Shown here: one piece after another, positions 18,649 through 23,271 of the stretch
Position numbering within the stretch: the stretch's first letter is position 1
Layout of the letters: each line of letters begins with the position of its first letter
Assembly (NCBI GenBank): GCA_042216675.1
Contig: JBDGTS010000014.1
Coordinates: forward strand, 27,592-52,854
Length of the DNA: 25,263 bases
DNA from: Halobacteriaceae archaeon
GTDB lineage: Archaea > Halobacteriota > Halobacteria > Halobacteriales > Halobacteriaceae
Direction of reading: 5' to 3'
The notes under the pieces: generated by a model
Seen by the model: the letters and a program-made list of their open reading frames with translations, nothing else
Database searches by the model: none
What the model was told of the DNA's origin: nothing
Position numbers and translations under genes: made by a program

Positions 18649-19551
18649 ATGAGCGAGGCGACCGACCTTGAGGAACTCCGTCGGGGCACCGAACTCGTCA
18701 AGCGCGGGTTCGCGCAGATGCAGAAGGGCGGCGTCATCATGGACGTGGTGAACGCCGAGCAAGCCAAAATCGCCGAGGAAGTCGGCGCCGTCGCGGTGAT
18801 GGCCCTCGAAGCCGTGCCCGCGGACATCCGTAAGCGCGGGGGCGTGGCGCGAATGGCAGACCCCGCCGACGTGCAGGAAATCATCGACGCCGTCTCCATC
18901 CCGGTGATGGGCAAGTCCCGCATCGGCCACCGGAAGGAGGCCGAGATTCTGGAGGCCATCGGCGTCGACATGATCGACGAGTCCGAGGTGCTGACGCCCG
19001 CGGACGACCAGTACCACATCGACAAGCGGGAGTTCACCGCGCCGTTCGTCTGCGGCGCACGGAACCTCGGCGAGGCGCTCCGGCGCATCGACGAGGGCGC
19101 CGCGATGATTCGCACGAAGGGCGAGGCCGGCACCGGCGACGTGAATCAGGCCGTCTTCCACCAGCGCACCATCAAGGGCGCCATCCGAACGCTGGAGGGC
19201 ATGAACTACGAGGAGCGCGAGAAGTGGGCGCGCGAGAACGAGGCGCCCGCCGAACTCGTCCACGAGACGGCAGAGCGCGGCCGCCTCCCCGTCGTCAACT
19301 TCGCCGCGGGCGGCATCGCGACGCCCGCCGACGCGGCCCTGATGATGTACCACGAGTGCGACGGCATCTTCGTCGGGTCCGGCATCTTCGGCGCGGAGGA
19401 CCCCGAGACGATGGGCCGCGCCGTCGTCGACGCCGTCAACAACTGGGACGACCCCGAGCGCCTCGCCGAAATCGCGTCGAACGTCGGCAAGGGCATGAAG
19501 GGTGAGGCGGACGTCGCCGAGGAGGAGGAACTGCAGGGCCGCGGCGTCTAA
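18649..19551 (+). CDS. pdxS: pyridoxal 5'-phosphate synthase lyase subunit
   Basis: [39 protein letters not shown] and [14 protein letters not shown]. Confidence 0.97.
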
Positions 19552-19910
19552 GTCTTCTCGCGCCTGTAGAACCCGGCGACGAACTCGTATGTCAGCAGGC
19601 CGCCGACGAGGAGCCCCAAGAACGCGGCCACGGCGGCCCGCCCCTGCTCCGTCGTCTCCATCGAGGGCGACATCGCGAGCGCCGCGAGATAGCCCGTGAC
19701 GAACACGCCGGTTCGGACGCGGAGGCGCACGCCCGTCGCGGCGTCGACGGCGGCGAGATACAGCTGCGGGCCGATGCCCGTCGCGACCGTCGCGAGCAGG
19801 TAGATGCCGAGTCCCGAGAGAGACTCCAGTCCGCGGACCCCCGCCGCGACGAAACACGCGGCTCCGACGAGGAACCCGACGCCGAGGGTGGCGTTCTCGC
19901 GGGAGACCAT
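19548..19910 (-). CDS. hypothetical membrane protein (about 4 TM)
   Basis: Hydrophobic 120-aa ORF filling the gap between pdxS and the leuA promoter; converges on pdxS with a 4-nt overlap. Confidence 0.65.
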
Positions 19911-19982
19911 GCGCCGCGCTTTTCCATCGTTTCAGATAATCGTTTGGTTGTCGCCCGAGCGCCGGGCGGCGCTACGGACAGG

Positions 19983-19988
19983 CTTAAG
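19983..19988 (+). promoter_or_regulatory. TATA box of leuA
   Basis: CTTAAG, 28-33 nt upstream of ATG 20016. Confidence 0.65.
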
Positions 19989-20015
19989 TGTTCGGCCGGC
20001 CCACCGTAGGGTACA

Positions 20016-20087
20016 ATGTCGTCTCACGACGACCCCGGTGCAAGTCCGGGGGACCGAGTTCTTCAAGGGCACGTTAGCCCAGCGTAG
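20016..20087 (+). promoter_or_regulatory. leaderless uORF overlapping the leuA 5' end (MSSHDDPGASPGDRVLQGHVSPA*); candidate +1 frameshift leader
   Basis: ATG at the expected transcript start but out of frame with LeuA; hairpin CCCCGG/CCGGGG (20033-20051); single Leu codon CTT at 20061-20063. Confidence 0.6.
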
Positions 20088-21225
20088 CGAGATCGACGAG
20101 GCACGCATCTTCGACACCACGCTCCGCGACGGGGAGCAGTCGCCACGCACGTCGTTCAGTTACGACGACAAGCGCGAGATAGCCGCGACGCTCGACGACA
20201 TGGGCACCCACGTCATCGAGGCTGGGTTCCCGGTCAACAGCGACGCCGAGTTCGAGGCGGTGCGCGACATCGCCGAGAGCACGACGTCCGACGTCTGCGG
20301 TCTCGCGCGCGTCGTCGAGGAGGACATCGAGGCGGCACTCGATGCGAACGTGGACATCGTCCACGTCTTCTCCTCCACCAGCGACGTGCAGATCGAAGAC
20401 TCGATGCACGCGACCCGCGAGGAGGTACTGGAACGGTCGGTCGAGGCGGTCGAACGCGTCAAATCGGCGGGCGTGGAGTGCATGTACTCGCCGATGGACG
20501 CGACCCGCACGGACCACGACTTCCTGCTGGAGGTCGTGGAGGCCGTCACCGAGGCGGGGACCGACTGGATAAACATCCCGGACACCTGCGGGGTGGCGAC
20601 GCCGACGAGGTTTGGCAGCCTCATCGGCGAGCTCGTCGAGCACACGGACGCGAAGATAGACGTCCACACGCACGACGACTTCGGACTCGCGACTGCGAAC
20701 GCGCTGGCCGGCTTCGAGAACGGCGCGGCGCAGGCACAGGTGAGCGTCAACGGCATCGGCGAACGCGCCGGCAACGCGGCTTACGAGGAGGTCGTGATGT
20801 CAGCGGAGTCGCTGTACGGCGTCGACACCGGCATCGACACCACTGGCATCACGGAACTGGCGCGGATGATCGAGGAGAAGTCCGACATCCGCGTGCCCGC
20901 GAACAAGCCCGTCGTGGGGCGCAACGCGTTCTCCCACGAGAGCGGCATCCACGCCGCGGGCGTCATCGAGAACTCCGAGACGTTCGAGCCCGGCGTGATG
21001 ACTCCCGAGATGGTCGGGGCGTCCCGCGAACTCGTGTTGGGCAAGCACACGGGGACTCACTCCGTGCGCGAGCGCCTCATCGACGCTGGCTTCGACCCGA
21101 CCCCCGAGGAGGTCCGAGAGGTCACCCGGCGCGTGAAGGACTACGGCGCGGAGAAGAACCGCGTCACGATGTCCGACCTCGAACGGTTCGCGCGGGAGAC
21201 TGGCATCGAGGAGGTTCAGGCCTGA
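20038..21225 (+). CDS. leuA: 2-isopropylmalate synthase, short form (start uncertain: in-frame GTG 20038, or ATG 20016 with a +1 frameshift)
   Basis: IFDTTLRDGEQ, IEAGFP, PDTCG, HTHDDFGLA.AN, NGIGERAGNA and HESGIH; sits in the ilv/leu cluster. About 395 aa, with no C-terminal regulatory domain. Confidence 0.88.
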   Translation: MQVRGTEFFKGTLAQRSEIDEARIFDTTLRDGEQSPRTSFSYDDKREIAATLDDMGTHVIEAGFPVNSDAEFEAVRDIAESTTSDVCGLARVVEEDIEAALDANVDIVHVFSSTSDVQIEDSMHATREEVLERSVEAVERVKSAGVECMYSPMDATRTDHDFLLEVVEAVTEAGTDWINIPDTCGVATPTRFGSLIGELVEHTDAKIDVHTHDDFGLATANALAGFENGAAQAQVSVNGIGERAGNAAYEEVVMSAESLYGVDTGIDTTGITELARMIEEKSDIRVPANKPVVGRNAFSHESGIHAAGVIENSETFEPGVMTPEMVGASRELVLGKHTGTHSVRERLIDAGFDPTPEEVREVTRRVKDYGAEKNRVTMSDLERFARETGIEEVQA

Positions 21226-21290: not shown

Positions 21291-21296
21291 ATTTAT
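21291..21296 (+). promoter_or_regulatory. TATA box of the ilvB operon leader
   Basis: ATTTAT preceded by purine-rich CAAG, about 29-34 nt upstream of ATG 21325. Confidence 0.65.
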
Positions 21297-21324
21297 GATT
21301 GGTCGTCCCGTCAGTCGGACGTAC

Positions 21325-21399
21325 ATGCTGGAGACGCGCCCGGCGCACGGTCGACCGACCGCCGCCAGCGCCGCGGCCGTCGTACTCGTAGGGGCGTAA
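21325..21399 (+). CDS. putative ilvB leader peptide (MLETRPAHGRPTAASAAAVVLVGA*)
   Basis: Leaderless-position ATG; GTC-GTA-CTC-GTA Val/Leu codon cluster; TAA forms the loop of the GGGGCG/CGCCCC hairpin. Confidence 0.6.
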   Translation: MLETRPAHGRPTAASAAAVVLVGA

Positions 21400-21420
21400 C
21401 GCCCCGCACAGTTCCTTCTC
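21391..21420 (+). terminator. candidate attenuator hairpin with pyrimidine tract
   Basis: GGGGCG-TAA-CGCCCC (21391-21405) followed by TTCCTTCTC (21412-21420). Confidence 0.4.
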
Positions 21421-21506: not shown

Positions 21507-21513
21507 GAGGTGA
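21507..21513 (+). promoter_or_regulatory. Shine-Dalgarno of ilvB
   Basis: GAGGTGA, 6 nt before GTG 21520. Confidence 0.7.
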
Positions 21514-21519
21514 TCGGCG

Positions 21520-23271
21520 GTGAGCGAAACGCCGAGCCAACGGCTGACCGAGGACGAACAGGACGAGAAGCGACCCGTCTCGACGGGCGCGGAGTCCGTC
21601 GTGCGAGCGCTGGAGAACGCGGGCGTCGAGACGCTCTTCGGCGTCACCGGCGGCGCCATCATGCCCGTCTACGACGCGCTGTACGATTCGGAGATGACCC
21701 ACGTCACGATGGGCCACGAGCAGGGCGCCGCCCACGCCGCCGACGCGTACGGCGTCGTCAGCGGCGACCCCGGCGTCTGTCTCGCCACCTCGGGTCCCGG
21801 CGCGACGAACCTCGTGACTGGCATCGCCGACGCCGACATGGACTCGGACCCGCTCATCGCGCTGACCGGGCAGGTGCCGACGTCGATGGTCGGCAACGAC
21901 GCCTTCCAGGAGACGGACACCACCGGCGTCACCGCGCCCGTCACGAAGGCGAACTTCTTCGCACAGGACCCCGACTCCGTCGGTGATGACGTGGGCACCG
22001 CGTTCGCCCTCGCGAGCGAGGGCCGGCAGGGGCCGACGCTCGTCGACCTGCCGAAGGACGTGACCCAAGGCGACGCGGAGCGAGAGCCCGCGCCGGCCGA
22101 GGCCCCCGAGACCCACGACCCCGAAGAGCGGGCCGACGAGGAGAACGTCGCCGAGGCCGCCGAGGCGCTGTCGAACGCCGAGCGCCCGGTCATCCTCGCC
22201 GGCGGCGGAGTCATCAAGGCCAACGCCAGCCCCGAACTCCGGGCGTTCGCCCGCGAGTACGAGATTCCGGTCGTCACGACGATGCCCGGGCTGGGCTCGT
22301 TCCCCGAGGACGACGACCTGTCGCTTGGCTTCGCGGGGATGCACGGCACCGGCTACGCCAACATGGCGGTCACCCACACCGACGTGATGCTGGCCGTGGG
22401 CACCCGCTTCGACGACCGACTCACCGGCGGCGTGGACTCCTTCGCGCCCGAGGCGGAGGTCATCCACGTCGACATCGACCCCGCCGAAATCTCGAAGAAC
22501 ATCCACGCGGACTACCCACTCGTCGGCGACGCCGAGTTCGTCCTCGACCAACTGTACGAGGCGATGCCGAGCGAACCGCCCGCCGACGAGTGGCGCGCGC
22601 AGTGTCAGACGTGGAAGGCCGAGTACCCGATGGACTACGAGACGCCCGAGGACGAACCCCTCAAGCCGGAGTTCGTCGTCGAGGCGTTCGACGAGGCTAC
22701 CGACCCCGACACTATCGTCACCACCGGCGTCGGCCAACACCAGATGTGGGCCTGCCAGTACTGGGAGTACACGGAGCCCCGGACGTGGGTCTCCTCGCAC
22801 GGACTAGGCACGATGGGCTACGGCCTGCCCGCGGCCATCGGCGCGCGCTTCGCCGCCGACGAGGAGCAAGACGTCGTCGCCTTCGAGGGAGACGGCTCCC
22901 TGCTGATGACCGTCGAGGAACTGGCCGTCGCGGTCCGCGAGGACCTCGATCTCACCGTCGCCGTCCTCAACAACGAGTACGTCGGGATGGTCCGACAGTG
23001 GCAGGACGGCTTCTACGAGGGTCGCCACATGGCCTCTGAGTACGCGTGGTGTCCCGACTTCGCGAAACTCGCCGAAGCCTTCGGCGCGCAGGGCCTCACC
23101 GTCGACGACTACGACGGGGTGCCCGACGCCATCGAGGCCGCCCTCGACTACGACGGGCCGACGGTCATCGACTTCCACGTCGACCCGCAGGAGAACGTCT
23201 TCCCGATGGTGCCGAGCGGCGGGAAGAACGGACTGTTCGCGATGAACGCCGAGCAACTGGAGCAACTGTAA
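21520..23271 (+). CDS. ilvB: acetolactate synthase large subunit
   Basis: HEQGA, TSGPGATN, GMHG, RFDDR, VGQHQMW, GLGTMGYGLP and the TPP motif GDGS...NN. Confidence 0.96.
   Translation: MSETPSQRLTEDEQDEKRPVSTGAESVVRALENAGVETLFGVTGGAIMPVYDALYDSEMTHVTMGHEQGAAHAADAYGVVSGDPGVCLATSGPGATNLVTGIADADMDSDPLIALTGQVPTSMVGNDAFQETDTTGVTAPVTKANFFAQDPDSVGDDVGTAFALASEGRQGPTLVDLPKDVTQGDAEREPAPAEAPETHDPEERADEENVAEAAEALSNAERPVILAGGGVIKANASPELRAFAREYEIPVVTTMPGLGSFPEDDDLSLGFAGMHGTGYANMAVTHTDVMLAVGTRFDDRLTGGVDSFAPEAEVIHVDIDPAEISKNIHADYPLVGDAEFVLDQLYEAMPSEPPADEWRAQCQTWKAEYPMDYETPEDEPLKPEFVVEAFDEATDPDTIVTTGVGQHQMWACQYWEYTEPRTWVSSHGLGTMGYGLPAAIGARFAADEEQDVVAFEGDGSLLMTVEELAVAVREDLDLTVAVLNNEYVGMVRQWQDGFYEGRHMASEYAWCPDFAKLAEAFGAQGLTVDDYDGVPDAIEAALDYDGPTVIDFHVDPQENVFPMVPSGGKNGLFAMNAEQLEQL

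Follow-up and report, generated by a model that had tools for sequence, protein, structure and literature searches.

How does translation of leuA begin when the gene has no ATG in its own frame ahead of the catalytic motif? The question is raised by a stretch of 25,263 nucleotides (nt) from a Halobacteriaceae archaeon (assembly GCA_042216675.1, contig JBDGTS010000014.1, positions 27,592 to 52,854 of the forward strand), referred to here in its whole length as the window. The LeuA reading frame runs open between 19804 and 21225. Its only possible starts in the 200 nt ahead of the catalytic DTTLRDGEQ motif are a TTG, 165 nt before the motif, and a GTG at 20038. An ATG at 20016-20018 lies out of frame and opens an open reading frame (ORF) of 23 codons that ends at a TAG (20085-20087); LeuA occupies the +1 frame of this ORF. 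An earlier note, made from the sequence alone, had pointed out this arrangement and proposed that a leucine-responsive +1 frameshift gates LeuA synthesis. The comparisons reported here suggest that leuA is probably subject to hungry-codon +1 frameshifting resembling that of prfB, which would report the supply of Leu-tRNA, or of Ile-tRNA in the case of a paralogue.

The leuA leader and its conservation in Halobacteria

The elements of the locus are as follows.

19982 to 19989, forward strand: TATA-like box, with CTTAAG at 19983-19988, at -33 to -28 from the ATG at 20016
20016 to 20087, forward strand: 0-frame leader ORF of 23 codons plus TAG, opening at the presumed 5'-terminal ATG
20033 to 20051, forward strand: hairpin CCCCGG-TGCAAGT-CCGGGG, its 3' arm ending 6 nt before GTT
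20038 to 20040, forward strand: GTG, the sole conventional LeuA-frame start candidate here, not conserved in orthologues
20048 to 20057, forward strand: purine-rich Shine-Dalgarno (SD)-like tract GGGGGA with spacer codon CGA, forming a predicted duplex with the 16S 3' end
20055 to 20072, forward strand: 18-nt near-invariant box CGR GTT CTY CNA GGG CAC, defined by its entropy profile
20058 to 20064, forward strand: proposed shift heptamer GTT CTT C (P-site GUU, 0-frame A-site Leu codon CUU, +1 landing codon UUC)
20062 to 21225, forward strand: LeuA frame after the proposed shift, with HMGL-like and HCS_D2 domains and the stop TGA at 21223-21225
20085 to 20087, forward strand: 0-frame stop TAG that ends unshifted reading, an early stop kept in orthologues

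The finer anatomy described in the earlier note was borne out. The leader reads ...CGA GTT CTT CAA GGG... and contains exactly one Leu codon, CTTAAG is placed as expected of a TATA-like element, and the GTG at 20038 sits at the junction of the 5' arm and the loop of the hairpin. The two T-ending codons at the site are rare: across 773 long ORFs of the same genome, GTT accounts for 5.4% of Val codons and CTT for 3.9% of those for Leu. The source assembly is metagenome-type, 80% complete, in 58 contigs and with a G+C content of 68.8%.

We compared 96 haloarchaeal orthologue loci, comprising 30 from relatives, 23 named records and 43 from a phylum-wide sample; the relatedness of these genomes, and a possible overlap between named and unnamed sets, mean that the counts overstate independence. 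The conservation that the earlier note had only suggested was found throughout. At 96/96 loci an out-of-frame ATG, always in the same relative frame, marked the predicted leaderless start, and it was followed in that frame by a near-invariant heptamer (GTTCTTC at 88, GTTCTCC at 5 and TTTTTGG at 3). The 0-frame stop followed 12-36 nt past the site at all 96, where the genome-wide probability of a stop within 12 codons in that off-frame is 0.10 (this genome). The organization expected of +1 frameshifting, with overlapping ORFs and a product in the +1 frame that has no start of its own, was thus present at 96/96 loci, with the qualification that the window itself has GTG 20038.

That GTG was not conserved, as the earlier note had anticipated. 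The orthologues carry 73 distinct leader ORFs of 18-33 amino acids, and in 51 of these the LeuA frame contains no ATG, GTG or TTG between the leader ATG and the catalytic motif. A canonical LeuA-frame start lies within the leader in 17/73 and solely downstream of the site in 5/73. Moreover, 18 of the 73 leaders contain a LeuA-frame stop, and in one relative from the same family, with a 99%-complete genome (L149), the GTG is directly followed by TAA. In-frame CTG was found in just 21/67 leaders, and no near-cognate codon was universal or at a conserved place. A regulatory upstream ORF (uORF) of the usual kind precedes a main ORF with its own start codon, and such a start is absent from the 51 leaders mentioned above.

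Leu codons are nearly absent upstream of the site (4/1084 codons in distinct leaders, compared to 8.3% genome-wide), which would fit a single designated sensing point. To express the arrangement as a pattern, we searched for an ATG followed by NTT and a Leu codon, an early stop, and LeuA in the +1 frame. This was found at 30/30, 43/43 and 27/37 loci in three genome samples and at 37/80 named loci; the same search in the other wrong frame gave 0/30, 0/43, 0/37 and 3/80, respectively. The leader arrangement exceeds chance.

Among 89 distinct haloarchaeal upstream sequences, the A+T fraction reached 0.71-0.99 at -34 to -27 from the leader ATG, compared to approximately 0.2-0.5 elsewhere, and 70 of them had a hexamer with at least five of six positions A or T beginning at -36 to -31. 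The position of this peak matches the geometry of the haloarchaeal TATA box for a leaderless transcript, which makes leaderless initiation likely.

Position of the frame change and the elements around it

Entropy across the alignment defined the 18-nt box, in which no position except +7 exceeded 0.41 bit and synonymous positions were frozen in both frames. Entropy was zero at positions 0 to +4 and at +6 (72 distinct sequences); the G at position 0 was invariant in 72/72, and genome-wide the Glu codons GAG and GAA stand at 74:26. On the 5' side of the site, substitutions followed the leader frame. The Arg codon 5' of GTT showed synonymous variation when read in the 0 frame (CGA or CGG in haloarchaea, CGT, CGC or CGA in other lineages), where the same changes in the LeuA frame would read E/G/V/A/D, and the Halolamina-type CTC variant is silent in the 0 frame and changes F to S in the LeuA frame. 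The next 0-frame codon after CTY in haloarchaea always ended in A (CAA, CCA or CGA). From +7 on, the pattern was that of LeuA, with third positions at 1.22 bits versus 0.81 and 0.60 at first and second positions; here Thr and Leu codons of the LeuA frame changed synonymously and the 0-frame reading was not conserved. These substitution patterns in both frames place the frame switch within GTT-CTY-C.

Two other slip sites were considered and rejected. A slip on the G run at CCGGGGGAC was ruled out by the absence of the run from many orthologues, and a slip at GGG-C past the heptamer by locus L047, which reads CGG there. A relaxed search for the 18-nt box elsewhere in the genome returned three other matches, all within ordinary coding sequence as judged by eye.

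A shorter version of the leader was present in 26/37 sampled loci from other families of the phylum and in named Methanothrix metagenome-assembled genomes (MAGs). Here the start codon was followed by an SD-like tract, typically GAGGGAT, then by three spacer nt, NTT and a Leu codon; the stop came 6-36 nt past the site, and LeuA again lay in the +1 frame. The spacers were mostly the Arg codon CGN and otherwise TGC, TAC, TGT, CAT, AGT, TCA or CAC. At four of these loci (L155, L156, L175 and L177) the LeuA frame is open for merely 8 nt before the site. Some methanogen leaders carry two to three tandem Leu codons. No leader was found at 11/37 sampled non-haloarchaeal loci (four families). At 10 of these an ordinary in-frame ATG precedes the motif by 21-48 nt; the remaining one (L164) has TTG/GTG only. 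Ordinary leuA starts were also seen in the Thaumarchaeota, Bathyarchaeia and Methanobacteria of the named set. Out-of-frame ATGs in Thaumarchaeota and Bathyarchaeia were rejected as leaders, being the tails of upstream genes ahead of a normal leuA ATG.

In total, 129 leaders were kept after eight false-positive ATT-TTA matches were dropped (L085, L092, L094, L101-103, L105 and L165); one other, L098, is doubtful because a stop is encountered in its +1 frame. The sensor codons were CTT (95), TTA (24, a figure that includes the eight dropped matches, so that the true number is about 16), CTA (8), CTC (6), TTG (3) and CTG (1), and thus all six Leu codons are used. The P-site codon was NTT followed by C or T in 129/129 leaders (GTT 94, TTT 22, CTT 13). 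By our reasoning, re-pairing one base 3' would be complete for UUU and CUU and would form two of three pairs for GUU.

Outside the phylum sample, mini-ORFs resembling the leader, in which NTT precedes a Leu codon and the enzyme follows in the +1 frame, were seen in a Desulfurococcales MAG (L083, five codons reading Met-Arg-Phe-Leu-Arg-stop), a 'Methanopyri archaeon' MAG (L059) and the MAG of an unclassified archaeon (L061). L061 and L083 are ambiguous, as an in-frame GTG or TTG is also present.

Two features on the 5' side of the site are putative stimulators of the shift. The 16S rRNA gene was not found in the window's assembly, and the 16S 3' end was therefore taken from three relatives (...GGATCACCTCC(T/A)). 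Pairing of this end with the 14 nt 5' of the P-site codon had a mean of -8.9 kcal/mol (56 distinct sites), compared to -3.6 kcal/mol in control windows (n=3335); 32/56 sites were at or below the control 5th percentile, and the window scored -8.6. The predicted duplex ends 1-3 nt before the P-site codon and is strongest in methanogens (-11.6 to -12.8). In the same operon, ilvB has a perfect SD (GAGGTGATC) 4 nt before its GTG at 21520 (window positions 21507-21522), and the use of SD-led initiation there lends credibility to rRNA pairing by the tract in the leuA leader.

The second feature is the hairpin, which folds at the same place in 66/67 distinct haloarchaeal sequences (mean minimum free energy (MFE) -13.6, mean z -1.5), with its 3' arm ending about 6 nt before GTT. 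Its pairing is preserved by covariation. In alignment A4, 8 base pairs were paired in 100% of 144 cells with 17 double-sided changes, and 0/500 shuffles matched the score; in alignment A3, 10 base pairs were 89.7% paired and 1/500 shuffles reached the score, where slid controls for these alignments were only 20-59% paired. The site is thus preceded at short spacing by both SD-like complementarity and a covarying hairpin. Upstream duplexes and refolding hairpins adjoining a shift site are reported to stimulate +1 frameshifting and to mimic an internal SD (PMC6321510), and by analogy the tract and the hairpin may act in the same way here. Other structures fared less well: a downstream hairpin GGGC..GCCC (20067-20080) is not conserved, and a pseudoknot between the hairpin loop and the GCAC box suits only one clade. 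A scan of 19500-20400 for bacterial-type promoters and terminators returned neither; for an archaeon this is informative only in that no terminator-like site is present. Terminator and antiterminator hairpins 3' of the regulatory codons, as in an attenuator, were likewise not found; the only conserved hairpin of the leader lies 5' of the Leu codon, and the coding region follows directly 3'.

An isoleucine-codon twin, the enzymes and a neighboring mini-ORF

A paralogue on another contig of the same genome (L031) encodes a protein 39% identical to LeuA, with a LeuA_dimer domain and 506 amino acids from an in-frame GTG. This GTG, 54 nt before the catalytic motif, is its only possible start, and there is no in-frame ATG. 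Upstream of it, behind a TATA-like box, a 0-frame leader ORF (L031:1446-1484) ends ...His-Phe-Ile-Arg-Pro-stop, and the enzyme is again in the +1 frame. We infer that L031 is the orthologue of Haloferax HVO_0644, disruption of which is reported to cause isoleucine auxotrophy (PMC8305020).

Leaders of the form Met-Thr/Ala-x-Asp-Arg-Phe-Ile (GAT CGA TTT ATT/ATC) were present in 17/28 paralogue loci of relatives; three others had a longer ...Glu-Ile-Leu... form and nine had no leader. Eight of nine paralogue loci without the element have at least one in-frame start, mostly GTG/TTG, with ATG in L195, L196, L198 and L200. Further haloarchaeal paralogue loci had the Ile leader in only 3/32 cases, plus one Glu-Ile-Leu form. 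Among non-haloarchaeal paralogue loci, 19/28 had an SD-like tract and a 3-nt spacer, then an Ile codon directly preceded by TTT or ATT, and a stop soon afterwards. Matches in the control frame were limited to 4/89 loci. At least eight genomes carry both leaders, with the Leu codon on one gene and the Ile codon on the other. The +1 landing codon of the twin, TTA, is invariant although it makes up 0.5% of Leu codons in this genome, and enzyme-frame coding therefore cannot explain the conservation of the twin. In four relatives, the paralogue leaders (L199, L206, L211 and L238) are 24-25 codons long and end ...Arg-Glu-Ile-Leu-(Val/Arg)..., with GAA ATT CTT/CTC placing Ile beside Leu.

The LeuA of the window belongs to the expected family by its Pfam matches (HMGL-like 6.5e-84, HCS_D2 8.4e-23) and its DTTLRDGEQ motif; the same Pfam search found no LeuA_dimer regulatory domain in it. 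Its top NCBIfam matches were isopropylmalate synthase models, all under the cut-off (469.6 vs 517), and NCBIfam gave no separation of LeuA and CimA for either paralogue. The assignment as LeuA is based on adjacency to ilvB, which lies downstream of leuA, and on PMC8305020. The leuA gene body is intact and conserved among orthologues. The haloarchaeal LeuA2 type is approximately 390 amino acids long and has no C-terminal LeuA_dimer allosteric domain; methanogen orthologues have open frames of 505-530 amino acids, presumably retain this domain, and have the Leu leader as well. Because it is present with both LeuA types, the leader is not a simple stand-in for allosteric feedback.

The spacer between leuA and ilvB holds a second small ORF.

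21292 to 21420: leaderless mini-ORF between leuA and ilvB, with a TATA-like element at 21292-21297, ATG at 21325 and stop TAA at 21397-21399
21391 to 21405: hairpin GGGGCG/CGCCCC over the mini-ORF stop

This mini-ORF has 24 codons, is rich in Ile, Val and Leu, and ends ...Val-Val-Leu-Val-Gly-Ala-stop; its Ile and Val codons ATT and GTA are the rare ones. Equivalents of approximately 19-38 codons were present in 27/30 relatives and 21/22 named haloarchaea, ending in (I/V/L)(I/V/L)-V-G-A/V plus zero to three further codons. GTAGGGG was present in all 47 distinct copies, each of which folds into a hairpin that places the stop codon within or next to its loop and has a pyrimidine- or T-rich tail behind it. 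The mini-ORF is a candidate branched-chain amino-acid leader or attenuator, which could act as a ribosome-mediated sensor for ilvBN. No paper on an archaeal ilv leader peptide was among the matches listed in the literature search, which were bacterial work only.

Mechanism, alternatives and meaning

The comparisons show the anatomy of the leader, how far it is conserved, where the frame changes, that the hairpin covaries and that the sensor codon corresponds to the enzyme. From these patterns we infer the slip itself, the slipping tRNA, its efficiency and its dependence on aminoacyl-tRNA, and propose the following sequence of events. The leuA mRNA would be leaderless, and the ribosome would begin at ATG 20016, outside the LeuA frame. 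Fourteen codons on, GUU would occupy the P site with CUU, the sole Leu codon of the leader, next in the 0 frame. If charged tRNA-Leu arrives promptly, the frame would be kept and translation would terminate at TAG 20085, yielding a 23-residue peptide and therefore no LeuA. If the A site stays empty, the peptidyl-tRNA would slip +1 from GUU to UUC, and UUC would be read next, with translation continuing in the LeuA frame to 21225. The SD-like tract three bases 5' of the P-site codon may push the ribosome forward, like the internal SD of Escherichia coli prfB, and in haloarchaea refolding of the hairpin behind the ribosome may add to this push. The outcome would be negative feedback by leucine on the first enzyme of the leucine branch, and the CimA-type paralogue would use the same device with an Ile codon.

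The A-site codon is always Leu (Ile in the paralogue), and CTT is rare in this genome. Leucine sensing draws strong, if indirect, support from the occurrence of all six Leu codons at the site and of the Ile codon in the paralogue. With regard to the slip, the part of the earlier note that placed it at GTT-CTT-C agrees with the alignments; its suggestion that tRNA-Leu slips on CUU, as in prfB and Ty1, fits them less well, and the P-site tRNA on GUU (NUU in general) is favored instead. A tRNA-Leu slip is less likely because the CUC, CUA, CUG, UUA and UUG variants cannot re-pair in this way. Re-pairing of the P-site tRNA from NUU to UUY with a Leu codon in the A site is more likely, being the only scheme that fits every variant.

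Several observations weigh against hungry-codon frameshifting as we propose it, in addition to the relatedness of the genomes noted above. Re-pairing of tRNA-Val from GUU to UUC leaves a first-position mismatch, and haloarchaea therefore have the least slippery P-site codon seen. The SD-like scores of haloarchaea are modest (-6.5 to -14.6), and the window's own hairpin is not significant alone (MFE -13.0, z -0.5). The in-frame GTG 20038 makes a conventional start possible for this window alone. In some non-haloarchaeal families, an in-frame ATG lies 15-27 nt before the motif at loci that have the leader (L161-163, L178-179 and L185-190), and where such a downstream ATG exists the leader could be a plain regulatory uORF. 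The four paralogue leaders reading ...E-I-L... (L199, L206, L211 and L238) fit neither the Leu nor the Ile class cleanly. Finally, a Phe-aromatic motif in the +1 frame could account in part for the Leu identity of the 0-frame codon, since any TTY plus T(T/A/G)N in the former gives xTT YTN in the latter. Arguments against this last option, which do not eliminate it for leuA, come from the Ile twin, the synonymous patterns and the nucleotide constraint.

A +1 frameshift of fixed efficiency, with no amino-acid gauge and a Leu codon kept for its slipperiness only, is an account we consider unlikely. It could operate, for example, through a tRNA-Leu slip from CUU to UUC as in prfB and Ty1, with a rare CAA, CCA or CGA codon in the A site. 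All five tRNA-Leu species are present in the 80%-complete assembly, including tRNA-Leu(GAG), which re-pairs at 3/3 positions from CUU to UUC; tRNA-Val(GAC) and tRNA-Phe were not found in this assembly, which is only 80% complete. A slip of this kind would suit the CTT-C at 88/96 haloarchaeal sites and the next codon there, since CAA, CCA and CGA are minor codons (8-15% of their families). However, it fails at the CTC-C of five haloarchaeal loci and at the CTA, CTG, TTA and TTG found elsewhere, and it explains neither the invariant NTT one codon earlier nor the use of Ile instead of Leu at the corresponding position of the paralogue.

Initiation of LeuA in its own frame without any frameshift appears quite improbable. 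Here the start would be GTG 20038 in the window and non-canonical elsewhere, and the leader would be a regulatory peptide at whose Leu codon ribosome stalling modulates LeuA initiation or mRNA fate. The existence of that GTG, the canonical in-frame starts within 17/73 distinct haloarchaeal leaders, and the several methanogen families with an in-frame ATG just past a leader with two to three tandem Leu codons are compatible with such a scheme, and in-frame CTG was named as an alternative by Pfeiffer and Dyall-Smith (PMC8305020). Against this, 51/73 leaders lack a canonical start, CTG is present in only 21/67, and no near-cognate is conserved in position. The frame also leaves little room for a start, being open for just 8 nt before the site at L155, L156, L175 and L177 and closed by TAA right after the GTG of L149. 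Coding selection in the LeuA frame begins two codons past the site, upstream of the leader stop. Furthermore, the 5' ATG is the only start available on a leaderless mRNA, and GTG 20038 lacks an SD and is located within the hairpin.

An artefact or non-ribosomal origin of the frame break (assembly indel, decaying pseudogene, transcriptional slippage or RNA editing) is very improbable, for although the window comes from an incomplete metagenome-type assembly of many contigs, the frame relation holds at 96/96 haloarchaeal loci, many single-contig genomes among them, the gene body is conserved and undamaged, a homopolymer run such as polymerase slippage relies on is lacking, and the 1-nt assembly indel that the earlier note had wished to exclude was absent between 20016 and 20087 from contigs of four metagenome runs, two of which bridge the whole stretch (contigs X1 and X2 end at 20039/20047).

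The arrangement combines traits of several known systems. In E. coli prfB, too, an NUU P-site codon is preceded at a distance of a few bases by an SD-like tract. In the published account of prfB (PMC6321510), the gene opens with a short 0-frame ORF, its product is encoded in the +1 frame, and the factor that decodes the slow A-site codon is itself the regulated quantity, resulting in negative feedback. In contrast, the presumed slow codon in leuA specifies Leu (or Ile in the paralogue) and is decoded by an aminoacyl-tRNA, whereas that of prfB is a stop codon read by its own product; leuA also differs in its archaeal hosts, in encoding a biosynthetic enzyme and, in haloarchaea, in the upstream hairpin and leaderless start. 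Re-pairing of a P-site tRNA in +1 at a slow sense codon is shared with the hungry-codon shifts of Gallant and with CUU-AGG-C of yeast Ty1, as described in a 2016 recoding review (PMC5009743). Those cases concern laboratory starvation and a retrotransposon with a rare tRNA, respectively, whereas the hungry codon of leuA matches the end product of the pathway. The review knows of no natural starvation-specific functional trans-frame protein and, in the text consulted, does not mention leuA (PMC5009743).

Antizyme is a further regulatory +1 frameshift that reports the level of a pathway end product; unlike the leuA leader it is eukaryotic, shifts at a stop codon, senses a small molecule, and is stimulated by the nascent peptide and a pseudoknot. 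As in leuL, ilv and pheL attenuation, a short upstream ORF with codons for the pathway amino acid would sense charged tRNA through ribosome speed. Unlike attenuation, however, leuA has no terminator/antiterminator pair, its hairpin lies 5' of the sensor codon, its leader overlaps the enzyme coding region, and the output would be a frame change and not transcriptional read-through. Incidental frameshifting has reportedly been seen in E. coli pheL.

Part of the problem is already in print. Pfeiffer and Dyall-Smith in 2021 described major start-codon problems in the orthologue set of HVO_1510 (leuA2) across 16 curated genomes, and offered as options an in-frame CTG or, speculatively, the out-of-frame ATG with ribosomal slippage (PMC8305020). 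The available part of that paper mentions ArcPP peptides upstream of Met-93 of HVO_1510 and names no shift site or stimulators (PMC8305020). The haloarchaeal start problem and the slippage speculation are therefore theirs; the extension to methanogens, the shift site, the six-Leu-codon pattern, the stimulators including the hairpin, and the Ile-codon twin are new here. We found no experimental paper on an archaeal leuA or cimA frameshift within the limited literature collection searched, and the text of the GeneTack survey gave no match for isopropylmalate or leucine.

On balance, we lean toward the view that LeuA and the CimA-type synthase, paralogues that catalyze the entry into the leucine and isoleucine branches, are each gated phylum-wide, in haloarchaea and many methanogens, by a prfB-like +1 frameshift at a hungry codon for their own end product. 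If true, Archaea would have their first case of cellular +1 recoding that is widely conserved. Hungry-codon frameshifting would also, for the first time, be seen to serve in nature as a feedback sensor and, induced by starvation, to make a protein; no such example is known according to the 2016 review (PMC5009743). It would also settle the published annotation problem. Annotations of leuA in many genomes of haloarchaea and methanogens have a wrong start, are truncated or call the gene a pseudogene, which leads to false gaps in pathway reconstruction. The two leaders would represent translational amino-acid sensors of a modular class, in which the codon can be swapped, such that exchanging the sensor codon between the Leu and Ile leaders should exchange their amino-acid specificity, and they would provide a compact part for amino-acid-responsive expression in archaea.

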